From NCBI GenBank assembly GCA_028699085.1, contig JAQVVF010000005.1, positions 79 through 64,078 on the forward strand: 64,000 nt of DNA, given 5' to 3'. Position 1 is the first letter of the stretch; every line of letters starts with the position of its first letter. Both the position numbers and the translations under genes were made by a program. Positions 1 to 54,111 of the stretch are shown in pieces. Below the pieces are notes generated by a model. It worked only from the letters and a program-made list of their open reading frames with translations, was not told where the DNA came from and did no database searches. The DNA is from Patescibacteria group bacterium (GTDB lineage Bacteria; Patescibacteriota; JABMPQ01; JAQVVF01).

Positions 1-63
1 TTCCTTTTTGCCCGCCTGCTTGGGCTTCGCCCCCAAAACTTTTCGGCGGTCGGTCGGCGGGAC
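1..63. repeat. GC-rich element, partial copy truncated by the window edge. It is the reverse complement of 7846..7908, with a 49-bp perfect match.
   Basis: Bases 1-49 (ttcctttttgcccgcctgcttgggcttcgcccccaaaacttttcggcgg) are the exact reverse complement of 7857..7905. About 65% GC, against a ~30% background. Confidence 0.7.
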
Positions 64-150: not shown

Positions 151-179
151 TTGACTAAATGCTAAAAATTTCATATACT
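151..179 (+). promoter_or_regulatory. Putative sigma70-like promoter of the HTH-hsdR-hsdMS-rloC operon
   Basis: TTGACT at 151-156, a 17-nt spacer, then TATACT at 174-179. Located ~60 nt upstream of the first ATG at 239. Confidence 0.45.
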
Positions 180-238: not shown

Positions 239-448
239 ATGTCAAACGAAAAATCCACAATTGGGGACAACATAAGAAAATACCGAAACAAACTCGGTAT
301 TTCTCAAGATGTGCTTTCAAAGAAAGCAGATTTGGCTTTTCATACAATCGCCAAGATTGAAGCTGGCTCTACTCCAAACCCCACAATTGATACAGTCAAA
401 AAAATAGCGGACGCTCTCGGCGTTTCGCTTGATGATTTAATGAAATAA
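239..448 (+). CDS. XRE-family helix-turn-helix transcriptional regulator (R-M controller/C-protein-like)
   Basis: 69 aa. Cro/C1-type HTH (GISQDVLSKKADLAFHTIAKIE). First gene of the R-M operon, 4 nt before hsdR. Confidence 0.8.
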   Translation: MSNEKSTIGDNIRKYRNKLGISQDVLSKKADLAFHTIAKIEAGSTPNPTIDTVKKIADALGVSLDDLMK

Positions 449-452
449 AATT

Positions 453-2966
453 ATGACAAATTCTAAAGAAGCAAAAGCACGAATAAAAATAAACAAATTG
501 CTTGAACAAGCGGGCTGGAGATTTTTTGATAATGAAAAAGGACAAGCAAACATTTCACTTGAACCAAATGTAAAACTTACCCAAAAGGACATTGACGCTT
601 TTGGTGAAGATTTTGAATCTACAAAAAACGGCTTTATTGATTTTTTATTGCTTGATGAAAAAGGTTTCCCACTTGTTATTTTGGAAGCCAAAAAAGAAGA
701 TAAAAATCCACTAGACGGAAAAGAACAAGCGAGAAAATATGCTCATACTGAAAATGCTCGTTTTGTAATTCTTTCAAACGGCAATCTTCATTATTTTTGG
801 GACTTGGAACGAGGCGATCCTGAAATTATCACGGAATTTCCAACGCAAGAATCTTTGAAGCACAGGCAAGATTTCAAACCCGACAATCAGCGTTTAGCAG
901 ACGAAGAAGTCAAAGAGGATTATATTGCGTTTACTCAAAATCCAAATTTCAAAGATGATCCTCGCTATCTCAACAAAGAAACACGAGAACAATATCTTTG
1001 GGACGAAAACTTGCGAATTTTACGCCCATATCAGCTCAAAGCGGTTCACGCTTTGCAAAAATCCGCCGAAGCTGGAAATGATCGTTTTCTTTTTGAAATG
1101 GCAACGGGAACAGGAAAAACGCTTATTTCCGCCGCCATTATTAAACTTTTTTTAAGAACAGGAAACGCAAAAAGAATTTTGTTTTTGGTTGACCGTTTGG
1201 AATTGGAAGATCAAGCACATAAAAACTTTGTCCGCTATTTGAGCAACGATTTTTCCTCTGTTATTTATAAGCAAAATCGTGATGACTGGAAAAAGGCGGA
1301 AGTGGTTATCACAACCGTTCAAAGTCTTTCATCGCAAGACAAATACAAAAAACTATTTTCACCAACTGATTTTGATTTAGTTATTGCTGATGAATCACAC
1401 CGAGCAATCGGCGGAAATTCGCGCGCAGTTTTTGAATACTTTATCGGCTACAAATTGGGCTTAACCGCAACACCGAAAGACTATTTGAAAAATGTTGATC
1501 CACAAAAGTTATCGCAAAAAGACCCGCGAGCTTGGGAAAGACGGCAATTGCTTGATACTTACACGACTTTTGGTTGCAAAAACGGCGAGCCGACTTTCCG
1601 CTTTAGTTTGCTTGACGGCGTGCGAGAAGGATTTTTGATCAATCCTATTGTTTCGGACGCTCGGACAGACATCACAACTGAATTGCTTTCAGAAAAAGGC
1701 TATGCGGTCATGATTGAAGATGAAGAAGGTGGCGAAAGCGAAGAAACATTTTTTCAAAAGGATTTTGAAAAGAAATTCTTTTCCGAAAAGACAAATCGTG
1801 TCTTTTGCCAAACATTTATCGAAAATTCTCTCAAAGACCCGATAAGCGGTGAAATCGGCAAAAGTATTATATTTTGTGTAAGCCAAAAACATGCTTCAAA
1901 AATTACCCAAACACTCAACCAAATGGCGAGCCAGCTTTGGCCCGACAAATACAATTCTGATTTTGCCGTGCAAATAACCTCAAACATTGCCGATAGCCAA
2001 CAATTCCCGATCAATTTTGCCAATAACAATTTAAGCGGGCATACAAAATTTTTAGAAAACTACAAATCAAGCAAAACCAGAATTTGTGTAACTGTCGGAA
2101 TGATGACGACTGGCTATGATTGCCAAGATATTTTGAATCTTGCGCTTATGCGTCCCGTCTTTTCGCCGACTGATTTTATCCAGATCAAAGGACGAGGAAC
2201 AAGAAAATTTACTTTTGAATATACCGACGAATACGGCGAAAAGCACAAAGCAATAAAAGATCATTTCAAATTTTTTGATTTTTTCGCTAACTGCGAATAC
2301 TTTGAAGAAAAATTTGATTATGACGAGGTTTTGCTGTTGCCTATCAAACAAAAAGGAACTGGTGGAGAAGGACCTGTCGGCGTTGATATTGATGAAATAG
2401 AAATTTTCAATCCCGACAAGGTAAAATCCCTCACCGAAATACCCGTTGGAATTGAGGGAATGAAAGTTGATCGAAAACTTTTTGAGAAAGCCCGCGAGGA
2501 ATTACAAAACGATCCCGAAGTAAAAACTGCCGTTGAAAGCGAGCAATGGGAAAAGGCGGTGCAGATAATGCGGAACAAATACGAAGACAAACCGCAATTA
2601 TTCCTAAATCTTGAAAAAATCCGCAAGAGTGAAAATCTTGATCGCCGTATTTCTTGGCGTGAATTTTTAGAGCGAGCTTTCGGCTTGATTGATGTTTTCA
2701 AATCCAAAGACGAGAAATTGGAAGAAGAATGCGAAAAATTTATTTCAATCTACAAACCCGAAAGCAAATATGTTCCACATATCAAAAATTATCTGAAGGC
2801 GTATGTTACGGATTCAGAAATTCGCGACATTATAGATTCCAAAGAATATGGGCGTTTTGCAACCAATCCAAAAGTTACGATGAAAGATTTTCGAGATCTG
2901 AATGGATATCGTGAAGTCGTCCCTGAATATGTAAAGGATTATGTAGCTATTAACGCTTTCATGTAA
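453..2966 (+). CDS. hsdR: Type I restriction enzyme R subunit (HsdR-like endonuclease/helicase)
   Basis: N-terminal HsdR_N/Mrr-like PD-(D/E)xK region (DFLLLDEKG...ILEAKK). SF2 helicase motifs: I ATGTGKT, II DESH, III LTATP. 837 aa. Operon with a methylase. Confidence 0.85.
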   Translation: MTNSKEAKARIKINKLLEQAGWRFFDNEKGQANISLEPNVKLTQKDIDAFGEDFESTKNGFIDFLLLDEKGFPLVILEAKKEDKNPLDGKEQARKYAHTENARFVILSNGNLHYFWDLERGDPEIITEFPTQESLKHRQDFKPDNQRLADEEVKEDYIAFTQNPNFKDDPRYLNKETREQYLWDENLRILRPYQLKAVHALQKSAEAGNDRFLFEMATGTGKTLISAAIIKLFLRTGNAKRILFLVDRLELEDQAHKNFVRYLSNDFSSVIYKQNRDDWKKAEVVITTVQSLSSQDKYKKLFSPTDFDLVIADESHRAIGGNSRAVFEYFIGYKLGLTATPKDYLKNVDPQKLSQKDPRAWERRQLLDTYTTFGCKNGEPTFRFSLLDGVREGFLINPIVSDARTDITTELLSEKGYAVMIEDEEGGESEETFFQKDFEKKFFSEKTNRVFCQTFIENSLKDPISGEIGKSIIFCVSQKHASKITQTLNQMASQLWPDKYNSDFAVQITSNIADSQQFPINFANNNLSGHTKFLENYKSSKTRICVTVGMMTTGYDCQDILNLALMRPVFSPTDFIQIKGRGTRKFTFEYTDEYGEKHKAIKDHFKFFDFFANCEYFEEKFDYDEVLLLPIKQKGTGGEGPVGVDIDEIEIFNPDKVKSLTEIPVGIEGMKVDRKLFEKAREELQNDPEVKTAVESEQWEKAVQIMRNKYEDKPQLFLNLEKIRKSENLDRRISWREFLERAFGLIDVFKSKDEKLEEECEKFISIYKPESKYVPHIKNYLKAYVTDSEIRDIIDSKEYGRFATNPKVTMKDFRDLNGYREVVPEYVKDYVAINAFM

Positions 2967-2971
2967 AAATT

Positions 2972-5428
2972 ATGCTTAATCAAGATACAAAACGAAAAAT
3001 TGACTCTGCCCGTAATATCCTTGTCGGCAAAGTTCCTGATCCAAAAGCACAGGTTGAGCAAATCACGACTGCTCTCATCTATAAATTTATGGATGATATG
3101 GACAAGGAAGCTCAAGAGCTTGGCGGTAAGGCAAGGTATTTTACAAATGGCTACGAAAAATATTCGTGGACAAAATTGATGGATGTAAAACTTGGTGGGC
3201 ATGAACGCTTGAACCTGTATTTTGAAGCAGTGAGCAGTCTTGGTCGCAATCAGCACATGCCACAAATTTTTAGAGATATTTTCGGCGATAAATCATTGCC
3301 ACCCTATCGTGATCCGCAAACCCTCACTCTTTTTTTGAAAGAGATAAATGGCTTTAATTTTGATCACAGCGAAGATTTGGGTGACGCTTATGAATACCTG
3401 CTTAATGTTATTGGCACATCTGGCGAAGCGGGACAATTTCGCACGCCTCGCCAAATTATTGATTTTATAGCAACAGCGGTTGATCCAAAAAAAGGTGATA
3501 CAGTTTGCGATCCTGCCTGCGGAACGGCTGGCTTCTTGATTTCTGCCTACAAACATATTTTAAAACAGCATGACGGTTTAGATGATCCCGAAAAAACAGA
3601 AAAACCGCTTACTCCAGACGAAAAGAAAAATTTGATGAATCATTTTGTCGGCTACGATATTGATCCAGGAATGGTGCGGATTGCTACGGTAAATATGTAT
3701 TTGCACAATTTTCCTGAACCGAAAATTTTTGAATACGACACGCTCACTTATGAGGACAGGTGGGACGAAACTTTTGATGTGATTCTCGCCAATCCGCCAT
3801 TTATGACACCAAAGGGCGGAATTCGTCCGCACAAGCGTTTTAGTATTCAAGCGAACCGATCGGAAGTCCTTTTTGTTGATTATATTGCCGACCATTTGAA
3901 TCTAAACGGCAAGGCGGGCGTGATTGTTCCCGAAGGGATTATTTTCAATAATCAAGTTGCATACAAGAATTTGCGAAAAAAATTAGTGGAAAGTTGTTTG
4001 ATTGCCGTCGTGAGTTTGCCTCAAGGTATTTTTATCAAGCCGGGCGGAAAAGGAAATGTCAAAACTGGTGTTTTGATTTTTGACAAAGAACTGGTCAAAA
4101 AAACCAAAGATGTTTTATTTGTGAAAATCAGCAATGACGGTTTTGATCTTGGCGCGCAAAGACGAGTAATTGATAAAAATGATTTGCCCTTGGCTTTGGG
4201 AATTATCAAAAGATATAAATCTGCGTTGAAAAACGGCAAGGATTTTGAATTAGACGAAGAAGAAAACAAAATTGCGCATATTGTTGCCAAAGAAAAAATT
4301 GCTGAAACTGGCGACTATAATTTAACAAATGAACGATATAAAGAAACGGCTGAGCGAATAAATCAAAAATATCCAATGGTTGAATTGGGCGAGGTTTGTG
4401 AGATGTATCAACCAAAAACAATCACCTCAAAAGAAATAAAATCAGAAGGAAAATATAAGGTTTTTGGGGCAAATGGAGTTATTGGATATTACGACAAGTA
4501 TAATCACGAAGATAGCGAGGTTCTTATCACTTGTCGTGGGGCAACTTGTGGGACACTTAATTTATCTGAGCCAAATTCTTGGATTACTGGAAATGCAATG
4601 GTAATAAAGCCAAAGGATGATCGACTTAGCAAGCAGTTTCTTTTTTACATTCTGAAACAATCAAACTTTAAATCGGTAATTTCTGGATCAGCTCAACCTC
4701 AAATAACAAGGACATCATTATCACCTTTAGAAATACCACTTCCGCCGATTGAAATTCAAAAAGAAATCGTTGAGCAGATTGAGGTCAAGCAAAATGCCAT
4801 AGATCACGCCAAGGCGATTATCCAAAATCTAGAGAGAGAGAGACGCTATTTTGGTCAATCACTTAGAAAATTAGAAGGCGTTGAATGGGTGGAATTGGGT
4901 GAAATTTTTGAAAAAGTGAGTGATCAAATCAATCCACAAAATAATTCTGGTTCAGTCGTCTATATTGGACTAGAAAACATTGAATCAAATTCAGGAAATA
5001 TAGTTGGGGAAATAAATACCGAAATGAAATCAATTAGAAGCATTAAAAATGTATTTAAAGAATCAGATATTCTGTATGGAAAACTAAGACCGAATTTAAA
5101 CAAGGTATGGTTATCAGATCGAAAAGGCATTTGCTCTACTGATATTCTGGTTTTAAGGAAAAAGAAAGAAGAAATGAATCCGTGGCTTTACACAATTATT
5201 TTAAGAAGTGAGGAATTTAACACTGAGGTTTTGAAAGGGCTAAAAGGTGCGCAATTGCCAAGAGTGAGTTTTGAGTACTTATCTAAAATCAAAATCCCAT
5301 ACTTGGTAGAAGAATTACAAGAAAGATATTTGAGCGATTTAAAAAATGAGGAAGAAGCAATAAATGCAAACAAAAAAATGATTGAAATTTACGAACAAAA
5401 AATTTCTGATGTGTTAAGCGAAATATAA
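2972..5428 (+). CDS. Type I R-M methyltransferase fused to specificity subunit (HsdM-HsdS fusion)
   Basis: N-terminal HsdM_N region. AdoMet motif DPACGTAGFL. N6-adenine MTase motif NPPF. The C-terminal ~350 aa contain two HsdS-like target-recognition domains (LITCRGATCG...; YGKLRPNLNKVW...) separated by a conserved EIQKEIVEQIE spacer. Confidence 0.8.
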   Translation: MLNQDTKRKIDSARNILVGKVPDPKAQVEQITTALIYKFMDDMDKEAQELGGKARYFTNGYEKYSWTKLMDVKLGGHERLNLYFEAVSSLGRNQHMPQIFRDIFGDKSLPPYRDPQTLTLFLKEINGFNFDHSEDLGDAYEYLLNVIGTSGEAGQFRTPRQIIDFIATAVDPKKGDTVCDPACGTAGFLISAYKHILKQHDGLDDPEKTEKPLTPDEKKNLMNHFVGYDIDPGMVRIATVNMYLHNFPEPKIFEYDTLTYEDRWDETFDVILANPPFMTPKGGIRPHKRFSIQANRSEVLFVDYIADHLNLNGKAGVIVPEGIIFNNQVAYKNLRKKLVESCLIAVVSLPQGIFIKPGGKGNVKTGVLIFDKELVKKTKDVLFVKISNDGFDLGAQRRVIDKNDLPLALGIIKRYKSALKNGKDFELDEEENKIAHIVAKEKIAETGDYNLTNERYKETAERINQKYPMVELGEVCEMYQPKTITSKEIKSEGKYKVFGANGVIGYYDKYNHEDSEVLITCRGATCGTLNLSEPNSWITGNAMVIKPKDDRLSKQFLFYILKQSNFKSVISGSAQPQITRTSLSPLEIPLPPIEIQKEIVEQIEVKQNAIDHAKAIIQNLERERRYFGQSLRKLEGVEWVELGEIFEKVSDQINPQNNSGSVVYIGLENIESNSGNIVGEINTEMKSIRSIKNVFKESDILYGKLRPNLNKVWLSDRKGICSTDILVLRKKKEEMNPWLYTIILRSEEFNTEVLKGLKGAQLPRVSFEYLSKIKIPYLVEELQERYLSDLKNEEEAINANKKMIEIYEQKISDVLSEI

Positions 5429-5430
5429 CT

Positions 5431-7845
5431 ATGATTAGCAAAATCTCAAAACTCGATAAAGTTGCTAAATTTTCTTCCATTACACAAGAGAAGGTTTTTC
5501 AATATGGTGGGAAAGGACAAAACTGCAATATCGTCTTTGGATTTAATGGATCTGGGAAAACCACTCTATCAAATGCAATTTCATTTTTCGCCGACAACTC
5601 CTTTATTAGTGAGGACGAAAAGAAAGAAATATATGATGATATAAAAAATGGTGATGATTCTATCGTTGAATTAAGCACACAAGGAAATTCAACAATAAAA
5701 TACCCTGCCAACAGCGCACATAGTAAAAATATTTATATTTTCAATTCCAACTTTGTCGCTACTCATGTTTTTAACGGCACGAAAGGAAAATTGAAAAAAT
5801 TTTCGAATATAGGCGGTGAAATTAAAAACAAGGAAATTGATAATATCAATCAGCAAATTGAAGTGCTTGACGAGGAGAAGAAAAAGCTAGAAAACGAAAA
5901 TACAAAATTAGGCGAAAAGCACGAGGAAATTACAAAAACCAGAAGCAAAAGTTTTGGTAAAACTTTGACCGATAAAAACAAAAGACTTTTAACTCAAGAT
6001 TTAACTAATGTTCAATTACCCACAGAAACTATTGAAAATCTTGAAGTAAAACTCGCTACATTTTCTGCCGATTATGAATTGAGCAAAAAACAGACTGAGT
6101 TAAACGCCGACCTTGAAGAATTACGACAACTAAATTTTAGCTCATTGGATTTTGATTTTCCAAAATTAGACGAGCTACTGGCAAAAAATATTCAACAACT
6201 GTCAAAAGAAGTTTTGGAAAAAAAGATAAAGGAAGTGCAAAATCTTTTTTCGGATGACCAACATAAACAAAGTGTTGAGAAATGGTTTAGATTTGGAAAG
6301 GATGTTTTAGAGAACACAAACGGGAATGACAAAAAACACTGCCCGATTTGTAATACAGATATATCAGAGCGAATGAGTTTAATTTTGAAGGATTATCAAG
6401 GATATTTTGATGAAAGTTATGAAAATTTTATTAACGATTTAAAGCTAAAAAGTGATGATATTTCAACGAATACCGTCACTTTAGAACAACACGAGCTAAA
6501 TGCTAGTAAATTAGAAAAACTGCAAATCAAGTATGCAAAACTGCTAGGCGAGCTTTCTTTTGAAAAATTTGATTTTAAAGATATTAAAGCTGACCTTGTT
6601 GAGTTAAAAGAAAGTTTTGTTTCAAAAAATGGGAATGTTCAAGACAATTTTTCAAAACCAAAGAATATAGAAAATAATATTACTGCCCTCAATCTTGCCT
6701 TGACAGCGTTTCAAGAACTCAGGAACAATGTTTTGAAACTTTTAGAATCAAAGAAATTAAACACGCACACTATTGAGGGACAAATCAGACAAACCTATAA
6801 CGAAATTATCCTACTAGAATTTAATCAAACTGATAAACTTGGGGCAATAAAGAAGTACAAAGTCAATAAAAATAGAATTGAGGCTATCATAGACAGCAAA
6901 GAGGCAGGTCTTCCTTTTTGGAAAAACAAATTGCTAGAAGAATTAAGGAAGCTCAAAGCTGAATCAAAGAGTATTTCCAGATATTTAAACAAAATGGGGA
7001 TAGATCATTTTGATATTGATATTAACGAAGAAAAACAAGACGAAAATATTATAATCAAATACAAAAATTCGACAAATGAGAAAAATAAGCTCAAAAATTG
7101 TTTGAGCGACGGCGAAAAAACAGCGTTAGCTTTCGCGTATTTTTTAAGTAAATTTGAAAATGAAATAAACACACCAGAAAAAGTGAAAGATTCTGTTGTG
7201 GTTATAGATGATCCGATTTCTAGCTTGGACGATAACAGACTTTACAGCACCGCTCATTTAATTTGGCGCAACTTTGAGGAAGCAAAGCAACTCATCGTAT
7301 TGAGTCATAACTTTCTTTTCTTGAAGTTTTTCAATTCTTTTTATTGTGGAAAAGCAAACTGTTTATTCTTGGATAGTGAAAAGATTACTGATTTGCCAGA
7401 TGAATTAAAAAACTTTGAAACGCCTTATTTTTATATGCTTAAGACAATCATTGATTTCTTGGATCAGAATAATCAAAATGTAAATTACAATGAAGCGAAA
7501 CGATACTTACCGAATTTCATTAGACGAGTTTTGGAAACATTTCTATCATTTAAGTTTTCAAGAACAGTCAACAAATCTGGCGGACATAGAAGTCCTGGAT
7601 TAAACGAATTTGATGAAAATATTGATAATACTGATATGGATGATAAAATAAAGAAAGAGTTGAAAGATAAAATAGCAGAAATAAACAGAATTGCAGATGC
7701 ACATTCTCACGGAAACGCTCATCACACGCAAGAAAATTTTTATATTTCCGAAACCGATCTCAAAACATTATCCCAAAGTGCAATCTCTGTTATTGAAACA
7801 ATGGATAATTTGCACAAGACTTGTTTTGTTAAAATTGAAAATTAG
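5431..7845 (+). CDS. RloC/PrrC-like ABC-type ATPase with a coiled-coil zinc hook and a putative C-terminal anticodon-nuclease domain
   Basis: 804 aa. Walker A GFNGSGKTT. Long K/E-rich coiled coil with a central CPICNTD (CxxC hook). ABC signature LSDGEK. Walker B/D-loop VVVIDDPISSLD. C-terminal region with R/H-rich motifs (NFIRRVLETF; AHSHGNAHH). Located immediately after hsd genes (restriction-linked ORF). Confidence 0.7.
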   Translation: MISKISKLDKVAKFSSITQEKVFQYGGKGQNCNIVFGFNGSGKTTLSNAISFFADNSFISEDEKKEIYDDIKNGDDSIVELSTQGNSTIKYPANSAHSKNIYIFNSNFVATHVFNGTKGKLKKFSNIGGEIKNKEIDNINQQIEVLDEEKKKLENENTKLGEKHEEITKTRSKSFGKTLTDKNKRLLTQDLTNVQLPTETIENLEVKLATFSADYELSKKQTELNADLEELRQLNFSSLDFDFPKLDELLAKNIQQLSKEVLEKKIKEVQNLFSDDQHKQSVEKWFRFGKDVLENTNGNDKKHCPICNTDISERMSLILKDYQGYFDESYENFINDLKLKSDDISTNTVTLEQHELNASKLEKLQIKYAKLLGELSFEKFDFKDIKADLVELKESFVSKNGNVQDNFSKPKNIENNITALNLALTAFQELRNNVLKLLESKKLNTHTIEGQIRQTYNEIILLEFNQTDKLGAIKKYKVNKNRIEAIIDSKEAGLPFWKNKLLEELRKLKAESKSISRYLNKMGIDHFDIDINEEKQDENIIIKYKNSTNEKNKLKNCLSDGEKTALAFAYFLSKFENEINTPEKVKDSVVVIDDPISSLDDNRLYSTAHLIWRNFEEAKQLIVLSHNFLFLKFFNSFYCGKANCLFLDSEKITDLPDELKNFETPYFYMLKTIIDFLDQNNQNVNYNEAKRYLPNFIRRVLETFLSFKFSRTVNKSGGHRSPGLNEFDENIDNTDMDDKIKKELKDKIAEINRIADAHSHGNAHHTQENFYISETDLKTLSQSAISVIETMDNLHKTCFVKIEN

Positions 7846-8215
7846 TCCCGCCGTCCCGCCGAAAAGTTTTGGGGGCGAAGCCCAAGCAGGCGGGCAAAAA
7901 GGAAGGGGGTTGGGGGGAAGGAATTTTTGCCCGCCTGCTTCCGTTCCCGTTCCGTTTGAGCAAAGGAAAAGCGGAAGGGGGGTTTGGGGGGAATTCCGCC
8001 ACGCCCGAGCGAAATCAAATTGTGGACAGCCCCGCCGTCCTGCTCGTTAAGAGCAGAACCCCGCACAAAAGTTTTCTTTTCCTTTTAGAAGAAAAAAATC
8101 GGCGCGCGCAAATCAAAAATTGTGAAGAAAACTTTTTTGCGGGGTGGCGAGGTTTCCGAGCGACGGCGGGGCTGGCTTCCTTATTGGGGGTTTTGCTCAA
8201 AAAAAGTTCGAACAT
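7846..8215. repeat. GC-rich (~60% GC) hairpin-dense element. Possible MITE/att-like element or structured RNA.
   Basis: Perfect 15-bp stem at 7886..7938 (gcaggcgggcaaaaa/tttttgcccgcctgc). Long imperfect hairpin 8025..8067 pairing with 8130..8176. 7857..7905 is the reverse complement of 1..49. No plausible ORF. Confidence 0.6.
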
Positions 8216-8255
8216 CAATCAAAAAACACCGTTTTTTATAAAAAAATATTTTTAT

Positions 8256-8738
8256 ATGGAAAATAACAAACAATCTACACAATGTTGTCCAAAATTTAAT
8301 CCAGAACTTTGGGATAATAAAATTATTACTTGGAATAACAAAAAATTTATCAAAGATAAAGTTTTCACCTTGTTCCACATGCCAATTAATTTTGGTTCAG
8401 TTATGAAAAGAATAACTGAAAAGGTAGAAAAAAATAAAGTTAATATTCCTGGTTATCTTTGCCTATCAGATCATACTTCAAAATGGAATATGGATGTTTA
8501 TTTAGCAGTTGATAAAGAAGTACCTGATGCTGAAAATATTACTTTAAATGGAAAATACTTAAGTAAAGTTTATGAAGGAAATTTTAAAGATACAGGCAAA
8601 TGGAGTGAAGATTTTAAAAATTTTGCTAAAGAAAAAGGTTTTAATATCAAAAAATGGTATATGTGGTATACGACTTGTCCAAAATGCGCCAAAAAATATG
8701 GCAAGAATTATGTAGCAATAATTGCCCAAATTGGCTAA
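8256..8738 (+). CDS. Hypothetical Cys-containing protein (CCPKF..., CPKCAKKYG zinc-ribbon-like end)
   Basis: 160-aa ORF starting at the ATG at 8256. The longer 7869 start lies in a non-coding GC-rich repeat. No recognised family. Confidence 0.45.
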   Translation: MENNKQSTQCCPKFNPELWDNKIITWNNKKFIKDKVFTLFHMPINFGSVMKRITEKVEKNKVNIPGYLCLSDHTSKWNMDVYLAVDKEVPDAENITLNGKYLSKVYEGNFKDTGKWSEDFKNFAKEKGFNIKKWYMWYTTCPKCAKKYGKNYVAIIAQIG

Positions 8739-8796: not shown

Positions 8797-9528
8797 ATGT
8801 TAAAAAACAAAACTGCCATTGTAACTGGTGCTGGTCAAGGTATTGGCAAGGGAATTGCCGTAGCTTTGGCAAAAGAAGGTTGCAATATTGTTGTTTCAGA
8901 TATCAATCAGGAAACTTGTGATCAAACTTTTGCTGAGATTACGAAATTGGGAGTTCAATCTATTGCTGTAAAATGTGATGTTTCAAAAAAAACAGAAGTT
9001 AATAATCTTTCAAAAGTTGTCGCAGAAAAATTTAATAAGATTGATATTTTAGTTAATAACGCTGGTATTTTTCCATTTGTTCCTTTTGCCAAAATGACTG
9101 AAGCTGATTGGGACAAAGTTTTAAATATTAATTTAAAAAGCATGTTCCTAACTTCCCAGGCTATTTCTTTGAATATGCCAGAAGGTGGAAAAATTGTTAA
9201 CATCTCCTCAGTTGCTTCTTTCATTGGTTTCGAAGGTTTAGTTCACTATTGCGCTTCCAAAAGTGGTGTTAATGGCTTGGTTAGAGCTTTAGCTTTAGAA
9301 TTAGCCCCTAGAAAAATCAATGTCAATGCTGTTGCCCCAGGAGCTATTGAAACTCCAGGTGCAAAATCGGACGAAAAAACAAAACAGCAAACTTTAATGA
9401 TGATTCCTCAAAAAAGAATGGGTAAACCAGAGGATATTGCTAATACTGTTGTCTTTTTAGCATCTGATAAATCAGATTATATTACCGGACAAGTTATAGT
9501 TGTTGATGGTGGTTGGACATTAAGATAA
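8797..9528 (+). CDS. SDR-family oxidoreductase (FabG-like)
   Basis: TGAGQGIGKG Rossmann motif. NNAG. YxxxK (YCASK) catalytic motif. 243 aa. Confidence 0.85.
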   Translation: MLKNKTAIVTGAGQGIGKGIAVALAKEGCNIVVSDINQETCDQTFAEITKLGVQSIAVKCDVSKKTEVNNLSKVVAEKFNKIDILVNNAGIFPFVPFAKMTEADWDKVLNINLKSMFLTSQAISLNMPEGGKIVNISSVASFIGFEGLVHYCASKSGVNGLVRALALELAPRKINVNAVAPGAIETPGAKSDEKTKQQTLMMIPQKRMGKPEDIANTVVFLASDKSDYITGQVIVVDGGWTLR

Positions 9529-9535
9529 TTATTTT

Positions 9536-10276
9536 ATGCTTAGTGCATTACTACTTACAACAATATCTGGACTGTCAACAGTTATTGGTGGCTTGGCAAT
9601 TTATATTATCAAGAATAAAAACAAATATTATAGTTTAGGAATGGGTTTTGCTGCTGGAGTAATGATTTATATCTCTTTTGTCGAATTACTTGGTAAGAGT
9701 ATAATAAAAATTGGATATGGAAAATCAATACTGTCATTTTTTATTGGGATTATTATAATTTTTCTTATTGATATTTTGATACCTCATCTCTATCAGGAAG
9801 AAAAAAAGATTATAACTAAACAAGGTAAGACTTTTACAAAAAGTGCGATTCTAATAACAATTGGTATCGCAATCCATAACTTTCCAGAAGGCATAGCAGT
9901 ATTCTATTCTTCTCTTGCTGGTTTAAGTTTTGGATTATTTATTACATTAGCAATAATATTGCATAATATTCCCGAAGGTTTTTCAATTGCAATGGCTGTC
10001 AATAAAGCCACAAATAACAGAAGAAGAGCAATCTGGTTTTGCTTTATTTCTGGTATTGCTGAACCAATCGGTGCCTTATTATCCATTATCTTTTTGTATC
10101 GTTTCATTGATCAAAATTTATTAAACATTATTTTAGCTGGAGTCGCTGGAGTTATGATTTTTATTAGTTTTGATGAATTATTGCCTCAAGCTTATACGCA
10201 AAAAAGTGCCCATCTAACAATTGGCGGCATAATAAGCGGTATGGCAATAATGTCAATCAGCTTATATTTCCTTTAA
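9536..10276 (+). CDS. zupT: ZIP-family zinc transporter (ZupT-like)
   Basis: Multi-TM protein with HNFPEG and HNIPEG signature motifs. Confidence 0.8.
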   Translation: MLSALLLTTISGLSTVIGGLAIYIIKNKNKYYSLGMGFAAGVMIYISFVELLGKSIIKIGYGKSILSFFIGIIIIFLIDILIPHLYQEEKKIITKQGKTFTKSAILITIGIAIHNFPEGIAVFYSSLAGLSFGLFITLAIILHNIPEGFSIAMAVNKATNNRRRAIWFCFISGIAEPIGALLSIIFLYRFIDQNLLNIILAGVAGVMIFISFDELLPQAYTQKSAHLTIGGIISGMAIMSISLYFL

Positions 10277-10278
10277 TT

Positions 10279-11595
10279 ATGTCTCACAAAGAAAAAATTT
10301 TAGATATTATAAAACAATTAAAAAATTTAAAATCAAAGAATCAACCTGTTTCTTTTTCCAAAAAAACAGTTTCTCATTTTGTTCCATCAGCACACACATC
10401 AAGAGAAAAACTGCCCAAATTAGATTTAAAGTCTTTAGATTCTTTACTTAATATTGATCCAAAAAAAAATATTGGTATTGCTGAACCTGGTCTTACTTTC
10501 TCGGAATTATTAATAGAATCATTGAAATATAATTTAATTCCAGCTGTTGTCCCAGAATTAAAGACCATTACTTTAGGAGGTGCAATTTCCGGATGTTCAA
10601 TAGAATCAATGTCCTACAAGTATGGAGGATTCCATGATAGTTGTTTAGAATATGAAATAATCACTAGCAATGGAGAAATCATTATCTGCTCAAAAGATAA
10701 TAACCAAGATATTTTTGATATGATTCATGGTTCATATGGAACATTAGGAATAATTTCCAAAATAAAATTTAAATTATTGCCTGCCAAACCATATGTTCAT
10801 TTACTTTACAAAAAATATAATAATTTTGAGCAGTATTGGAATGATTTGCAAAAATACTGCCAGGAAAAACAATTTGATTTTATTGATGGAATAATTTATA
10901 ACACAAATTTATTTATTCTTTGTTTAGGCAATATGGAAGATTCTGCTCCTTTTACATCGAAATATGATTGGCTAAAAGTCTTTTATAAAGCTACTGCCAA
11001 GAAAGAAGAAGATTATTTTAAAATTTACGATTATTTTTATCGTTATGATGCTGATTGCCATTGGCTATCAAAAAAAATTCCGTTAATGGAAACATTTTTT
11101 GGCAGATTATTTTTTGGAAAGTTTGTTTTAGGATCAAGCAACTTAATAAAACTCTCCAAAAAGTTTGGGCCAAAAATTAATAAAGGCAAGAAACCAGATG
11201 TTGTTGTTGATGTTTTTATTCCTAACAATAATTTTCCACAATTTTATAATTGGTATAAAAAAGATTTTAATTTTTTTCCACTATGGATTGTGCCATACAG
11301 AGCTCCAAAAATCTACCCTTGGGTTTCTAACAGTTTAGCTAGCAAAATTGAAGATGCTTTTTTCATTGATGCTGCAATCTATGGTAAAGAAAACAATGAA
11401 AAAAATATTGATTATGCTAAAATGCTTGAAGATAAAGTTTTTGAACTTAATGGCATTAAGACTCTAATTTCACAAAACCATTATTCTAGAACAAGATTCT
11501 GGGAAATTTATAATTTTGAAAATTTTAAAAAAGTTAAACAAAAAACAGATCCAAATAATTTGTTTAATGATTTATATAAAAAAATGGTTAGATAG
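10279..11595 (+). CDS. FAD-binding oxidoreductase (FAD_binding_4 / ALO- or DprE1-like)
   Basis: PCMH-type FAD-binding domain (LGGAISGCS...GSYGTLGII). The C-terminal ...DPNNLFN end is typical of FAD-linked oxidases. Confidence 0.7.
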   Translation: MSHKEKILDIIKQLKNLKSKNQPVSFSKKTVSHFVPSAHTSREKLPKLDLKSLDSLLNIDPKKNIGIAEPGLTFSELLIESLKYNLIPAVVPELKTITLGGAISGCSIESMSYKYGGFHDSCLEYEIITSNGEIIICSKDNNQDIFDMIHGSYGTLGIISKIKFKLLPAKPYVHLLYKKYNNFEQYWNDLQKYCQEKQFDFIDGIIYNTNLFILCLGNMEDSAPFTSKYDWLKVFYKATAKKEEDYFKIYDYFYRYDADCHWLSKKIPLMETFFGRLFFGKFVLGSSNLIKLSKKFGPKINKGKKPDVVVDVFIPNNNFPQFYNWYKKDFNFFPLWIVPYRAPKIYPWVSNSLASKIEDAFFIDAAIYGKENNEKNIDYAKMLEDKVFELNGIKTLISQNHYSRTRFWEIYNFENFKKVKQKTDPNNLFNDLYKKMVR

Positions 11596-11615
11596 TTTAG
11601 TAAATAAAAAAAAGT

Positions 11616-12239
11616 ATGAAAACAAAAATGTACGCGTTACCAGCCTTGCCTTATGATTATAAGGCTTTAGTCCCGTTTCTTTCTGAAGAGCAATTAAAAA
11701 TTCATCATGACAAGCATCACAAAGCATACGTCGATAAAGCAAATGAAGTTTTAGGAAAATTAGAAATTGCCCGAAGAGAGGGGACAAAAATTGATGTTAA
11801 AGCAGTATCAAAAAATCTATCATTTCAAGCAGCTGGCGCATTATTGCACTCATTATTTTGGAAAAATTTAGCTCCAAAAGATCAAACGCAAACAGAACCA
11901 ACAAAAATTATTGGCGATGAAATTACAAAAGAATTTAGTAGCTTTGAAAGATTTAGAAAAGAATTTACAGATTGTGCAATCAATTGTGAAGGATCAGGCT
12001 GGGCAACACTTGCCTATGATCGACAGACAAATCATCTCGTAATTATGCAAATTGAAAAGCATAATATTAATATTATTCCAGGTCTAGATTTACTTTTAGT
12101 TTTAGATGTCTGGGAGCATGCTTATTATCTTGATTATAAAAATGAACGTCCAAAATATGTCGAAGCTTTCTGGCAAAATGTTAACTGGCAAGAAGTAGAG
12201 ATCAGATTAGACAAGGCGATACTTACCTTAAAGCAATAA
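11616..12239 (+). CDS. sodA: Fe/Mn superoxide dismutase
   Basis: LPYDYKALVPFLSEEQLKIHHDKHH N-terminal motif and DVWEHAYYLDY C-terminal signature. Confidence 0.9.
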   Translation: MKTKMYALPALPYDYKALVPFLSEEQLKIHHDKHHKAYVDKANEVLGKLEIARREGTKIDVKAVSKNLSFQAAGALLHSLFWKNLAPKDQTQTEPTKIIGDEITKEFSSFERFRKEFTDCAINCEGSGWATLAYDRQTNHLVIMQIEKHNINIIPGLDLLLVLDVWEHAYYLDYKNERPKYVEAFWQNVNWQEVEIRLDKAILTLKQ

Positions 12240-12786: not shown

Positions 12787-12814
12787 GTTTTTTATTAAAA
12801 TAATTTTATTTAAA

Positions 12815-12887
12815 CGGGCCGGACGGGACTTGAACCCGCGACCTTCTCCGTGACAGGGAGACGTGAACTCCGCTTCACTACCGGCCC
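12815..12887 (-). tRNA. tRNA-Asp (GTC)
   Basis: Cloverleaf with anticodon loop CTGTCAC, GGTTCAAGTCC T-arm and 7-bp acceptor stem GGGCCGG/CCGGCCC. No encoded CCA. Confidence 0.85.
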
Positions 12888-12927
12888 AAATTTATTTCTC
12901 AATGGTTTGCATCACAGATTATATCAA

Positions 12928-13001
12928 TAGCAGGGGACGGATTCGAACCGTCGACCGCCACTTTATGAGTGTGGTGCTCTAACCAACTGAGCTACCCTGC
13001 C
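12928..13001 (-). tRNA. tRNA-Met (CAT), elongator type. Could alternatively be tRNA-Ile2 (lysidine).
   Basis: Anticodon loop CTCATAA, D-arm GTAGCTCAGTTGGTTAGAGC and T-arm GGTTCGAATCC. The anticodon stem lacks the three G-C pairs of an initiator. Confidence 0.75.
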
Positions 13002-13090
13002 TCAAAACAAATAACTAAATTATAAATTAAAAATGACAAAATTTAGAATCGTAAATTTTTCATTTATAATTTAGTTATTTTTAATTCAAA

Positions 13091-13164
13091 ATTGCGGGGG
13101 GCGGATTTGAACCGCCGACCTTCAGGTTATGAGCCTGACGAGCTTCCAAGCTGCTCTACCCCGC
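13091..13164 (-). tRNA. Initiator tRNA-fMet (CAT)
   Basis: The sequence CGCGGGGTAGAGCAGC...GGCTCATAACC...GGTTCAAATCCGCCCCCCGCAA closely resembles bacterial tRNAfMet, including a C1:A72 mismatch. Confidence 0.85.
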
Positions 13165-13605
13165 GATAATACGTATATTATATATTAAACAATAAAAAAA
13201 GCAAGTTCACTTGCTCCTATCGATTATTGATGCAATATAAAATTATTTAGGTCCGAAAAAATATTTTAATAACGGCAAAATAGCATAAAAAATAAATGCC
13301 AGAATTGCCACTAAAATAAGATAAACTCTCAAAATTTTTGCTTCTTCTAACATTTGATCCAAAGTCTAATTACATAAATCAAAGTAAACAACAAAACAAT
13401 TGTCGTGCATGCAAAAAATAATAGTAGTTTTTCTGTTAATTCCATGACTTTAGTGATTAGTAAATAAGTAATTAGTAAGTAGTAAGTCATCTATATTATA
13501 AATAATATTTAAAAAGATGGCAACCTTTTAATTAATGATAATTCTTGTTAAACTGATAGAGAGCGATAACTAGTTACTAGTCACTTATTTACTAATTACA
13601 AAAAT

Positions 13606-21649: not shown

Positions 21650-22981
21650 CTATTGTTCCAAAACCATTGAATTTGTTTCATCAGCTCCTCGATTAGACAT
21701 TGCCTGCAAGAAAATTCTCATTGCGAGAAGTTGCTTGCTAGGCGCCAGAGAGTTATAATAGGTCCGCCAAGCCATGCTTTGCTGATCAGTACCGCGAATT
21801 GAAGCGATCAATTCGATCTCTTCTCGCATTTCCTGTTGATTATCAAGCATCTGGCCGACAAACTTGTCTTTGCGCTCTTCAATCAAATCTTCAGCAATCA
21901 TGATCAAAACATCCAAAGCAACTTCATCAGAAGTGATGTACAAACAGAAGTCTCTGTTATCATTATAGATTGCAGAATCATCCAACTCTGGATAGCACGC
22001 CTGCAATCTTTTTTGAATTTCTGTTGTATCAAGATGTTCAGGTGTTTTGTAGTCATCATGGTAAATCACCAGCTGGATTCGCTCGCGGTGCTTCGTGATG
22101 ATACAATCGACCTGCTGCTTGCCATCGAGATAAGGTGGCTTGCCGAAAAAGATCCGAGCAGTCTGTCCGTTTACTCCGGAATCGCTGAAGTCATGGTAGT
22201 ACAGACGAACTCCAAAGAGGGTCTTGTATGTACCTTTTTTGGCTTCATTGAAGTTCCTGCCGAACATCAACCTCACAGACATGAAAGCATCCAAGCTATA
22301 GAACGCTGCGATTACCGCTTCAGCGAAATACGCATCGTCCTTCTTGGTACGCTCGCCGGTCTGCAAGTAGTTGAGTCCTCGGAGCAAATCAGCCAAACCA
22401 TAAAGATTGCGCATCTCGTATTCATTACGACCGTCAAACTCTTTGCCGTAATCTTTGGCATCGATGAATGCAGTCATAACCTTGAGATGCTCATACCTTG
22501 GACTTTCACGCAATCGATCTTCATGCATCCTGAAAACAATGCCAGTAGCAGAAAACCCATTGTCAACGTCGCCGTGATGATCATAGAAAAAAACTCGCTG
22601 TCCGACCTTAAACTTTTCTGGAGTCCAAGGATCAAGCTTCCGGCCAGTGTCAAAGTGGACAATCATCACGCGAGAGCGCTTGACGCCATTTTGCACTGGA
22701 TTCTCAGCGGTTTCATTTTCTTCGTTATCATCATCAGCCTTCTTTACTTCATCAGAAAAAGGAATCCAACGATCTTGATCAGTGTGAAAAAATCCATCCT
22801 GCAGATATTCTTCGCCATTCTTGACAAACAGCAAACGAATTCTTGCATCTTTCCAAGACAATCCAAATGCTTCACAAAACATATACATTGCACAAGAAAC
22901 ATCGCGGTCAGGCAACTGATGCCCAACAAAAAGGAGATAATCAAGATGCAAAAAATAAAACAAATCCTTCTTTGTCACCAT
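21650..22981 (-). CDS. Hypothetical protein, probably horizontally acquired
   Basis: 443 aa when started at the ATG at 22979..22981, which is preceded by AGGAGGA. The ORF-track TTG start at 23032 is less likely. GC content is about 45%, against a ~30% background. No recognised domain. Confidence 0.5.
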   Translation of the reverse strand: MVTKKDLFYFLHLDYLLFVGHQLPDRDVSCAMYMFCEAFGLSWKDARIRLLFVKNGEEYLQDGFFHTDQDRWIPFSDEVKKADDDNEENETAENPVQNGVKRSRVMIVHFDTGRKLDPWTPEKFKVGQRVFFYDHHGDVDNGFSATGIVFRMHEDRLRESPRYEHLKVMTAFIDAKDYGKEFDGRNEYEMRNLYGLADLLRGLNYLQTGERTKKDDAYFAEAVIAAFYSLDAFMSVRLMFGRNFNEAKKGTYKTLFGVRLYYHDFSDSGVNGQTARIFFGKPPYLDGKQQVDCIITKHRERIQLVIYHDDYKTPEHLDTTEIQKRLQACYPELDDSAIYNDNRDFCLYITSDEVALDVLIMIAEDLIEERKDKFVGQMLDNQQEMREEIELIASIRGTDQQSMAWRTYYNSLAPSKQLLAMRIFLQAMSNRGADETNSMVLEQ

Positions 22982-23194
22982 CGTGTCCTCCTTCGAAGTC
23001 AATAATTCAGAGTGCTTACTTGCACAGGTCAAAATATATTAGCATATCTTTTTTATTTTGTCAATCAATACGTTATAATATCCCTTAATTAAGCCAAAAC
23101 AGAATATCACATATCCCCAAATTTTCCTTGCAAAATCATCATTATTTGTTATACTAATATTGTTTAGAAAACTCTAATTTTATGTTTAAAAAAT

Positions 23195-50801: not shown

Positions 50802-53800
50802 CTATTGAGCTATTTTTGTAAATTCTGCGCTATTTAAAAATTCATTCTTGATGTCCTGTATTGATTTTCCTGATTGCTTCCAATAATTCACGCCTGAAAT
50901 ATCTGCAGCTCTTGCATACAAAGTTTCATATAATTCTTCGATTTGTGCTTCTTTGTCTTTGATTGCTTTTAATCTATCGTCATACTCTTTGCTCATAGCC
51001 AGCTCTTTTCTCATTTCTTTTGCATTAGGCAATGCAACCAATTTTTCTATACCTGTTTCGTCACCGCCTCGCTTTAATACTATTTGATATGCTAGGTCAG
51101 CTTCAGCTATCTTCTTTTCTTTTGGCTGCATTTTATTTATATTACCAACAGCTTCTGGACTGACCGAAATTGCAAATTTAGCTCCTGAAATATCAATCTG
51201 TTTATTGTCATTTCTTTCTATTTGCTTTGTCCAGTAATCAACTCCATTTTTATCAACAAATTTCTTTATATTATCTTTATATATTCTATCATGAATGCGT
51301 CGATACAAATTTTCGACAGCTTTTTTTGTACCCAATTTTGCTGCCGTTGCTTGCAGCCTCTTATCAAATTCTTTATATTTTCTGTCATTAAGCAACGTAA
51401 AATGTACCCCTCTCAAACTCAGAGGCTCTTGGTTATTTGTCGGTTTGTAGAAAAAATTTGCTCCACCTCCACGCAAACTTTTATCAGGTTGTACATATTT
51501 ATTAACCTGAAAATTATCTCCAAAGACTAAATTATAATAATAGAGAATTGTCTGAAATCTATTCAGCGTTTTAAAGTCACCAATATCTGAACATCTATCA
51601 GATAAGCTAACTTGGAAATAATATGGTTTTTGTCCAGCCACGTAACCTTGATCATTTTTGTCTGAAAATTCGCCGCCTTTTAGATTTTCAAGCACTGTAT
51701 AATATTTATTTTCATTATTTTCATAGTAGGTTTTTGCGTTCTGCAAATTTCCGCCGACTGCAATGCCATTATTATTAATCACAGCATCAGTAGTATATTT
51801 AAAATCTAGATCTTTATTTTTGTATTCATCCTTGCCAGTTTCCCATTTAATAACAACTCTGTCAGCTCCTCGCTGTATTAACTGAGGATTTTTTAATAAA
51901 TCAGCATCATTGCTCGGGCAAAACGCTTGATCTTCGCTTAATGCAGTAACTTTTATTGGAGCAGCATTAGCTAAAGGATGAACAAAAGTAAGCTTTGCTT
52001 CATATTCTCCAGGGTTTTGATATACGTGTTCAGGATTTGCTACATCTTGCAATGTTGTACCATCACCAAAATCCCAAGTATATGGTACGCCTGTCAGATC
52101 AATATCTTTATATAAATTCTCAAAACTAAAACTGACCGTTAGAGGAGCCTTGCCAGCATTTGGGTTGGCATTGATTTTTACTCCACTGGCGTATATCCAT
52201 GGCCCATTTACATATTTTGTATTTCCATCAGCATCTCTGACTGCCAAAGCTGTACTATAAATCCCAGAGTTTTTATATTTAAAAGTAGGGCTTGATTCAT
52301 CGCTATCAAGCAATTGGTACTCAGAAATCGGCTCCTGATTATACATTTCATCAGATTTTGCGAATTCCCAGTCATATTTATAAGGTCCTTTTCCGCCCGT
52401 TACTGTTGCCGTAAATTTAACATCCATTGGCGCAAGTCCTTGAGTTGGTGTCGCATCAATTGACACATTCAATGCACCCAAATCAACTTCTCCTCCGGGT
52501 GGTTCTGGCAGAGGTTCATCTCCAAGTTCGCCAGTTTTTACGGTAAAATCAAGTCGATCTAAATATATACTAGTTGGCAACGTAACCATCTCCTTTGATA
52601 CAGAGGTATTTGCAGGTACTGCGTTTGGGTCATCCGGAGTAATAATTTGAATATTCGAAATGCCTGGATTTAATGCCTTTATTTTTGCTCCTTGATAACA
52701 TTTTGTCCCAAAACCACCGCTACTGCAATCAACTTCTACAGTATCTAGTTTAATTAAATTTTCAGCAAAATTAGTTTTTGTATCTTCCTTCTGTGCTTGT
52801 TTAAAATCAATCGTGTCAGATTGTGGAATTGTAAAAAAATTTACATCCTCACTACCTTTAAAAGAAACAATATTTTCCAGAGGTTTATTATATTCAACTC
52901 CATTAGGATTACCAGTATTAGTATTAAATTCATATCCTAATGCATATTTTAAACCGCTTGCAGTCTGTTGAAAAATATCCTGATTAAAGTTATAAACAAA
53001 ATTATAATTAATATCTCTTACCAAATCCACTTTTCGCCAAGTCGCTCCTTTGTCAAAGCTAAAAAATAATTTTAAATCACTTGCTTTAATAGAGTCTCGA
53101 TATTCAGCAAGGGGATAATATATTCTATCTAGCCACAATTTACCTTCAATTCCTTTTATGCTTTTTCCGCTAATATTTATTTCATTTGCACCAGCATGAG
53201 TTTCTGATAATTCTTTAGAAAGTATTAATTTATTTGTTAATTTTTCTTCAAAAAATGGTTTTGCAGTTCCGAGCCCAGCATTAGTTATGTTATTAAAAAC
53301 TGCTTCGTCACTTGTTAGGTCGCTGTCTACGGTAATTTCTAAAGAATTACTTGGTATTCCGCAAATTCCAGCACTAATTGTCGATTTTCCTTTAAAAACC
53401 GGTATGATGCTGCCATTGGCTGTCATTAAAAGCACTTTAGGTTGACTCGATTTCCATCTTAAAAGATCAGACCAAGTAATTGAATTATAATTAACAAAAT
53501 CATCGCCAATACTAGATCCATCAAAATCTCCAGTATCTGGATTAATTGGCTTGCCATTTATGCTAATTTGAATTGCGTTTCTTAGTCTATCAATGCCAAA
53601 TCTTAACCAAGAAGATTGGACGCTATTATCAACAATTGTTACTTTCTGAGGGTTTGGAGTGATTTCAATTGTATCAATTTTGTTTGCTAGAGAAGTAGAG
53701 CATAAATAATTTGTTGATTCTGTATTAAGGTCTTTACTAAAACTATTTTCGTTACTTGCTAGCTCAATATTATTATATTCTTCCGTTACATTTTGAAAAT

Positions 53801-54098: not shown

Positions 54099-54111
54099 TT
54101 TTTAAATTTAT

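Follow-up and report, generated by a model that had tools for sequence, protein, structure and literature searches.

What is a Rad50-like ATPase of 804 amino acids (aa) doing directly behind a type I restriction-modification (R-M) operon in a Patescibacteria genome? The question is raised by a gene of the rloC family in a 64,000-nucleotide (nt) stretch of contig JAQVVF010000005.1 (assembly GCA_028699085.1, positions 79 to 64,078 of the forward strand), which is called the window below and numbered from its first letter. The gene occupies 5431..7845 of the forward strand as an uninterrupted open reading frame (ORF) of 804 codons from ATG to stop. Taken as a whole, the best explanation, and in our judgement a probable one, is that it encodes an RloC-family anticodon nuclease made of a Rad50-like head, a hooked arm of ~390 aa and a HEPN RNase, which would act as a backup to the type I enzyme and is carried as island cargo. 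The architecture, the invariance of the motifs, the modelled HEPN fold, the position in the operon and the mobile context are matters of observation and are taken up in turn.

The protein and its family

All the ATP-binding cassette (ABC) motifs named in a preliminary description of the locus are where it placed them in the 804-aa ORF: a Walker A P-loop, GFNGSGKT (aa 37-44, including K43; nt 5539-5562), the ABC signature LSDGEK (aa 558-563; nt 7102-7119) and a Walker B/D-loop, VVVIDDPISSLD (aa 589-600, including D593 and D594; nt 7195-7230). The D-loop is followed by a linchpin or switch histidine, His626 (nt 7306..7308). The head is split by a helical, coiled-coil-like insert (aa 134-521; nt 5830..6993) that contains a CPIC zinc-hook motif (C304 and C307, aa 304-307; nt 6340-6351). 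The C-terminal domain (aa 657-797; nt 7399..7821), which had been described as rich in Arg and His and reminiscent of PrrC/RloC, indeed carries R698-x3-E702 in 'NFIRRVLETF' (nt 7522-7524 and 7534-7536) and S759-H760 in 'ADAHSHGNAHH' (nt 7705-7710), all on the forward strand. Two alignments, of 31 and of 93 homologs and extending down to ~20% identity, were used to assess conservation. G37, G42, K43, T44, C304, C307, S559, D593, D594, H626, R698 and H760 are invariant in the 93 homologs, and E702, S759 and P305 are conserved in at least 90% of them. Given this conservation, the motif set is no chance occurrence.

By the published definition, an RloC protein is 658-897 aa long, shares the ABC motifs of PrrC (the linchpin His among them), carries a CXXC zinc hook at the centre of a coiled-coil insert, and has near its C-terminus an Arg-X3-Glu-X36-52-His triad in which Ser often precedes the His (PMC2610378, PMC3458546); the linchpin or switch His is listed as an RloC feature (PMC2610378). 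The window protein has the ABC motifs, the CXXC insert, the triad (with a longer spacer), a length within this range, a HEPN domain and the AAA_13/COG profile. By published residue numbering, the key residues of Geobacillus kaustophilus RloC (GkaRloC; K44, C291, D572 and R692/E696/H737; PMC2610378, PMC3458546) correspond almost one-to-one to K43, C304, D593 and R698/E702/H760. By every criterion testable in silico, the protein is a bona fide member of the RloC family. It is a new member of a family already recognised by public pipelines, and taken alone it is of moderate interest.

The two profile comparisons proposed in the preliminary description both gave matches. Pfam AAA_13 covers aa 31-768 (E=1e-59; 203 bits, cutoff 36), and the PADLOC PrrC model covers aa 493-708, from the C-lobe of the head through the R-x3-E helix (4e-17). 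The best PADLOC model is the candidate system PDC-S06, which matches over the full length (1e-47). NCBIfam returned weak ABC-transporter matches, none specific to the 804-aa protein, and a literature search on PDC-S06 and AAA_13 was uninformative. Among 5.8 billion proteins searched, ~100 clusters of full-length homologs were found at 42-99% identity, and many full-length relatives at 42-90% identity keep the motifs. Several of the homologs, mates of the protein in its 90% cluster among them, were named 'wobble nucleotide-excising tRNase' by JGI, which is the COG name of RloC. Distant relatives (~20-29% identity) include 819-aa proteins of Helicobacter pylori. Close metagenome homologs are numerous, and some of them are labelled Gracilibacteria, Peregrinibacteria, Ignavibacteriaceae, Bacilli or PVC; the family moves between phyla. 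Of 80 relatives from species genomes, nearly all are 740-880 aa long with a single CxxC at aa ~265-385.

A profile of the C-terminal domain, searched exhaustively against 1.84 billion cluster representatives, matched 1,583 proteins at E<=1e-3, of which 615 reach E<=1e-10, and essentially all of them are built like RloC; among the best 150 of the 1,583, the full-length ones are ~730-870 aa long and carry the domain at their C-terminus. When this search was aimed at proteins of PrrC length, the matches of ~420-450 aa were C-terminal fragments of RloC type (PDC-S06 positions ~320-740) and not PrrC, so that the direct profile link to bona fide PrrC runs only through the partial PADLOC PrrC match.

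The expected domain order is seen in an AlphaFold model based on the alignment of 93 sequences (mean predicted local distance difference test score, pLDDT, 81): an N-lobe (aa 1-131), a segmented helical insert (134-521), a C-lobe (527-655) and an all-alpha domain (657-797). The head is therefore split by a helical insert, as had been proposed; the proposed length of ~450 aa was too large, the insert spanning ~390 aa. Its helices, as assigned by DSSP, are 134-178, 201-232, 243-296, 315-367, 383-401, 413-465 and 472-521. In the model the CPIC motif, with its invariant cysteines, lies at 44% of the insert length in a short beta-hairpin turn between two long helical arms, in agreement with the hook predicted near the apex of the coil. 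Foldseek matches of the whole model are the heads of Rad50, SMC, cohesin and condensin with their coiled coils, together with PtuA and LmuB, two ATPases of defence systems. The PDB was searched with the protein and with the profiles of the family and of the C-domain, and the matches were Rad50 heads only (E=2e-6 with the family profile, beside weak coiled-coil matches to lamin, keratin and SMC2), and nothing matched aa 636-804. The likeness to Rad50/SbcC thus lies in the head and in a predicted long antiparallel coiled coil with an apical CPxC hook; the coil is far shorter than that of eukaryotic Rad50, and a HEPN RNase is fused at the C-terminus.

In the C-terminal domain of the model, R698 and E702 lie on helix 686-708 and H760 comes directly after helix 738-756. 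Its structural matches are HEPN proteins, with match values of 10.0 for sacsin HEPN, 9.5 for AF0298, 9.4 for TT1696, 9.1 for AbiA, 8.6-8.0 for HEPN toxins, 7.6 for Csm6, 6.9 for LsoA and 6.2 for RnlA; Las1 and Cas13b are also among them. In PrrC and RloC, the nuclease domains have been assigned to the HEPN superfamily (PMC3710099), and the domain of the window protein is predicted to have this fold. The preliminary description had set its reading against a C-terminus unlike PrrC/RloC and best matches to SMC/RecN-like ATPases; what is found is a C-terminal HEPN domain, an RloC-family profile and the triad. The protein adds a well-supported branch from Patescibacteria (the Candidate Phyla Radiation, CPR) to the RloC family, whose natural trigger and role against phage await proof.

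The type I operon and the proposed control of the nuclease

The genes are arranged in the order HTH-hsdR-hsdMS-rloC with intergenic gaps of 4, 5 and 2 nt, all on the forward strand. The start codon of rloC, the last gene, follows the stop codon of hsdMS by 2 nt, and the R-M embedding described earlier for RloC family members is found here as a complete type I operon. The first gene (239..448) encodes a 69-aa helix-turn-helix (HTH) protein of XRE/HTH_3 type, which is probably the controller (C) protein of the operon; a 100% identical protein with Pfam HTH_3, HTH_19, HTH_26 and HTH_31 matches is encoded by an independent ENA contig, L088. HsdR (453..2966) is EcoAI/type IB-like (Pfam ResIII 1.6e-39, HSDR_N and Helicase_C; PADLOC REase_I 5e-56), and its match to NCBIfam restrict_EcoAI, at 4e-72, is under the model cutoff. 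HsdM and HsdS are fused into one protein of 818 aa (2972..5428; Pfam N6_Mtase 9e-55 and Methylase_S 3e-32 in two stretches; PADLOC MTase_I 8e-91 and Specificity_I), with the N6_Mtase domain at aa 134-461 and two Methylase_S target-recognition domains (TRDs) at aa 467-812. The best promoter candidate for the operon is a sigma-70-like TTGACT-17-TATACT at 151..179 of the forward strand (10/12 consensus matches); the consensus scan is a pattern match only, and the regional site count is not above the shuffled expectation.

The G+C content of hsdR and hsdM (within 453-5428) is 0.38-0.39, against 0.31 for rloC and 0.32 for the remainder of the window, a difference consistent with separate histories of the R-M genes and of rloC in the cassette. 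When the window is compared with L088, the HTH proteins are 100% identical, HsdR 94%, HsdMS 49% and RloC 99.4%; the HsdMS of L088 has 640 aa and one TRD, against 818 aa and two TRDs in the window.

Linkage to R-M genes is rare among RloC proteins (8/72 in the RloC literature), unlike PrrC. In a crude survey, an HsdM/S-like gene lies within 8 kb of the gene in at least 9 of 80 relatives. The contexts of four close homologs are, respectively, without R-M genes, a type I system with SMODS in an integrase-rich island, a type IIG system, and an hsdM-S-R-rloC operon in which stop and start codons overlap. The window gene differs from RloC of G. kaustophilus and Acinetobacter baylyi (AciRloC), which it resembles in length, key residue positions and HEPN-class nuclease domain, in being linked in cis to a complete type I operon and in lying on a tRNA-integrated island to which a serine recombinase probably belongs. 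The host was taken to be CPR-like in the preliminary description, and rightly so, since the source protein record (MDD3887752.1, on a contig of 70,387 bp) is labelled as from a Patescibacteria metagenome-assembled genome and the neighbouring PheT, GyrB, GatB and UvrD-type helicase likewise. The genome reads well under the standard code. A literature search found no paper tying RloC or islands of this kind to Patescibacteria. To keep an 804-aa suicide nuclease in genomes of ~1 Mb implies real phage pressure.

Latency, activation and wobble excision can be pictured by homology to GkaRloC and AciRloC. The protein would be a latent dimer whose nuclease is silenced via the zinc hook. DNA, especially DNA ends, together with ATP hydrolysis by the head, would free the HEPN domains, which would then cut the anticodon loop of tRNA and excise the wobble nucleotide. 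This lesion would be hard to reverse for phage tRNA-repair enzymes, so that translation would halt and the infection would be aborted. Because rloC begins 2 nt after hsdMS as the last gene of the operon, co-expression with the type I enzyme would be expected, and with it a second-line role in which the nuclease fires when restriction is blocked or overwhelmed. For this 'backup to restriction' idea the locus offers an unusually clean natural arrangement, with rloC translationally abutting a complete type I operon and a sister cassette that carries SIR2-HerA.

Several points weigh against this explanation. The spacer from E702 to H760 is 57 residues long, 5 more than the upper end of the published range of 36-52; the PADLOC PrrC alignment ends at aa 708, short of the His; and H760 falls in a loop to which the models give low confidence. 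That the arms pack antiparallel and that the hook sits at the apex are predictions from secondary structure and sequence position, and the PDB searches yielded no solved RloC or PrrC structure for comparison. Cleavage of tRNA, wobble excision and control by zinc and DNA are extrapolated from one distantly related characterised orthologue, family members outside the close clade, the non-CPR members among them, being only ~20-29% identical to the window protein. We know of no demonstration that RloC protects its natural host from phage.

An alternative, which we regard as rather unlikely, is that the nuclease is controlled as in PrrC, being kept latent by direct binding to HsdR/HsdMS and released by a phage anti-restriction protein instead of by its own hook and ATPase switch. 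PrrC of the E. coli prr locus likewise combines an ABC ATPase with a C-terminal anticodon nuclease bearing the same triad, and is a putative backup within a type I R-M operon; according to the literature it always resides in type I loci and is regulated in this way. The gap of 2 nt in so tight an operon suggests translational coupling, the P0079 gene overlaps hsdR by 4 nt in its hsdM-S-R-rloC operon, and the RloC authors put forward that members of the minority linked to R-M could be 'mobilized in PrrC's way'. PrrC differs, however, in being ~400 aa long without a coiled-coil/zinc-hook insert, whereas the window protein has 804 aa, a 390-aa insert and the CXXC; its gene lies between hsdS and hsdR of invariably type IC systems and it cleaves once, 5' of the wobble base, whereas the window has an HsdR resembling that of EcoAI (type IB), a fusion of M with S, and rloC in last place. 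With its hook cysteines and all ATPase motifs fully conserved, the window protein has presumably retained the internal switch. R-M genes are absent altogether from the neighbourhood of P0023, a homolog with 77% identity, and the R-M partners of other homologs vary between type I (with M and S separate or fused) and type IIG. The 99.4% identity of RloC beside 49% for HsdMS between the window and L088 also argues against a tightly co-evolving S/M interface. With RloC near-identical across cassettes whose HsdMS are very different, and with R-M-free homologs in existence, an internal DNA-sensing switch, co-regulated with the R-M system, is the favoured trigger.

It is improbable that the protein is an RloC-like ABC-HEPN protein with another RNase target (mRNA, rRNA or another site in tRNA), as is the case for other HEPN defence nucleases. 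The R-x3-E...SH triad is the signature of PrrC/RloC and not the canonical Rx4-6H, R753, which would create an Rx6H, is not conserved, and according to the literature anticodon loops are the target of both characterised branches that bear this triad. Very improbable is a decayed or inactive passenger hitch-hiking with the R-M system on the island. The RloC authors noted that in some orthologues the ATPase or nuclease motifs are poor and that these proteins may be inactive, and the turnover of island cargo is quick; against this, the frame of the window gene is intact and full length with all functional motifs conserved, as they are in the relatives at 42-90% identity, and RloC has been kept at 99.4% identity while HsdR and HsdMS diverged. 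That the protein is a Rad50/SbcC/RecN-type repair or SMC-like ATPase with no nuclease role is hardly credible, for although its best PDB sequence matches and best folds are Rad50 and SMC heads with coiled coils and the CPxC hook is as in Rad50, it has an additional HEPN domain with an invariant triad that Rad50/SbcC lack, Pfam gives AAA_13 and not SbcC/SMC_N, its neighbours are R-M genes and a PF20603 hydrolase with no adjacent phosphoesterase partner of Mre11/SbcD type, and the gene stands in an R-M operon on a mobile island.

The tRNA-Ser island and its inverted repeats

The cassette rides as cargo on a small, recently mobile island that has inserted at the 3' end of a tRNA-Ser gene, a context that the preliminary description had not foreseen. 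The site without the island is present in two Logan contigs, L211 (1-320) and L210 (1-60), from a near-identical population (FabG identical, flank 98.6% identical), where it aligns with 8170-8300 of the window. There, the genes for tRNA-Ser(GGA) and tRNA-Ser(UGA) end exactly at the position of the element end in the window and are followed by the same downstream sequence. The empty junction reads ...GGGTTCGAATCCCACCCTCTCCG|TTTTTTATAAAA, with the tRNA ending in CTCCG, and the occupied one ...AAAGTTCGAACATCAATCAAAAAACACCG|TTTTTTATAAAA, with the element ending in CACCG, at 8231|8232. It is because the tRNA-Ser genes of the empty site end where the element ends that the cassette can be placed on a tRNA-Ser island; the window itself contains no tRNA-Ser gene.

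The right arm of the island is a complete copy of a non-coding element, E, of ~386 nt (7846..8231, forward strand), which begins directly after the rloC stop codon. The left arm (1..62, reverse strand) is the inner ~60 nt of the same element in reverse orientation, cut by the window start: 49 nt are 100% complementary to 7856-7904, and BLAST extends the match to 62 nt at 93.5%. The contig thus probably begins inside the left repeat. In L088 both arms are complete (1779-2192 and 9443-9856), each 414 nt long, 99% complementary and 7,250 nt apart, and short-read Logan contigs with the same cassette break within the arms. Element E has a G+C content of 0.52, against 0.32 for the genome, with G-runs and nested hairpins, and its folding beats that of shuffled sequence (z = -4.55); no credible Rfam match resulted in either gathering or E-value mode. 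The outer ~26 nt, which form the junction between island and chromosome, resemble the T-arm and 3' end of a tRNA. Attachment (att) sites of tRNA-targeting elements usually have such a resemblance.

At least 120 metagenome contigs contain a 22-nt core of the element, which has no exact match in viral contigs. In the 80 loci examined from these contigs, the copies are 70-100% identical to that of the window, and 17 of the 80 loci have two copies, always with the inner ends facing and with 2.2-9.7 kb of cargo between them. The first ~190 nt are almost invariant in 24 full-length copies, and the consensus fold has 95 pairs, 16 of them with compensatory changes on both sides. Within this invariant half stand four long G-tracts (GGGGGTTGGGGGG and GGGGTTTGGGGGG; 7905-7917 and 7979-7991), which could form a G-quadruplex. 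A 289-aa ORF with a TTG start (7869-8738) was rejected as an artefact that reads through the element; the real gene, a PF20603 'Bact_hydrolase' of 160 aa, is at 8256-8738, as in L211.

A gene for a large serine recombinase, whose domains are Resolvase, Recombinase and Zn_ribbon_recom, lies outside one arm, the left one in L088, in 13 loci, including L088 (1-1554, reverse strand), L131 (7751-9262), L135 (6563-8113), L148 (2655-4157) and L165 (1176-2663). Its far end adjoins or overlaps a tRNA gene, tail-to-tail, which is tRNA-Val in L131 and L165 and tRNA-Ser in L135 and L148. Our reading of the island is accordingly an order of tRNA, serine recombinase, inverted repeat, cargo, repeat and chromosome, and L131 contains this layout complete within one contig. 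The 64 kb of the window contain no recombinase, probably because the contig starts within the left repeat; the recombinase and tRNA of its island would lie beyond the contig start. With respect to the repeat, the body of the recombinase gene occurs both ways round, between 134-nt inverted copies of its own 3' end (52-185 and 1669-1802 in L088), which suggests inversion of the gene, with assembly ambiguity as the alternative. Two other layouts were considered. A composite transposon, drawn from L146 with a recombinase outside both arms, was set aside because the assembly may have run from one identical inverted repeat into the other. A fixed hotspot on the chromosome, marked by the repeats, was rejected, since 21 of 30 outer flanks are mutually unrelated and an empty site exists.

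The cassette itself is a mosaic with a fast-evolving specificity. This follows from the DNA identities of its segments between the window and L088, which are 97% for rloC and the repeat and 86% for HTH-hsdR-hsdM, while the hsdS part does not align. Among contigs the cargo differs and consists mostly of defence genes. L113 (641-7921) has an HsdR 91% identical to that of the window and a fused HsdMS, followed in the rloC slot by SIR2 and a HerA-like ATPase, so that the backup modules RloC and SIR2-HerA appear to be interchangeable. The same type I system is found with DUF4145 and other genes in L156 and L160. Three divergent proteins of AAA_13/RloC type occupy the same terminal slot, ending at the element, in L121, L141 and L163. 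Further cargo includes type III R-M systems (L145 and L146), other methyltransferase or type II(G) modules (L149, L155 and L166), AAA_15/21 with a Dam-type methylase (L140), a McrB-like ATPase (L092) and a 1,526-aa SF1 helicase (L133). A P-type ATPase (L147/L162) and sugar-modification genes (L101) are non-defence cargo.

In its site-specific insertion, the empty site of close relatives and the variable cargo including R-M genes, and in the large serine recombinase that lies at one end in sibling loci, the island resembles SCCmec and the enterococcal cassette chromosome, which large serine recombinases mobilise, and, more broadly, integrative islands that target tRNA genes. It differs in its target, a tRNA 3' end being more typical of tyrosine integrases, in the ~400-nt near-identical structured inverted repeats around the cargo, which are conserved across unrelated cargo, and in a recombinase gene present in both orientations between 134-nt inverted repeats. 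As far as literature searches show, an island combining structured inverted repeats, a recombinase, tRNA targeting and swappable defence cargo is undescribed, and we know of no described element with this layout. We propose tentatively, as a conjecture short of a settled view, that these loci represent an undescribed family of small tRNA-targeting islands of Patescibacteria. The repeats and the recombinase would define this family, and the pair of inverted repeats would bookend a swappable and possibly invertible slot, filled mostly with restriction and abortive-infection genes, in which RloC and SIR2-HerA can replace each other behind the same type I R-M system, and the repeats would serve as recombination substrates, whether for the recombinase or for homologous recombination, that drive the exchange of cassettes within the CPR. 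Such exchange would be analogous in outcome to integron and SCC systems and built differently. The mechanism of the island is only partly established. If the proposal is true, the repeats and recombinase would be a concrete route by which ultrasmall, largely uncultured bacteria exchange immune genes, and the island could supply new parts for site-specific recombination; the mobile context may outweigh RloC itself and is the part most worth following up.

Other features of the window

Beside the island, positions 8797-12239 encode a FabG-like short-chain dehydrogenase/reductase, a ZupT zinc transporter, an FAD-linked oxidase and an Fe/Mn superoxide dismutase, a small oxidative-stress and metal cluster that is unexpected for a minimal CPR genome. 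It is followed on the reverse strand by a tRNA cluster, Asp(GUC), Met(CAU) and Met(CAU), at 12814-13166, which is also present in L210. Farther on, two ORFs overlap almost completely on opposite strands, one of 460 aa (21650-23032, reverse) and one of 389 aa (21836-23005, forward), in a region with a local G+C content of 0.39. Two large proteins of 1,098 and 967 aa with PKD and DUF4214 domains, encoded on the reverse strand at 50802-57015, are probably surface proteins.

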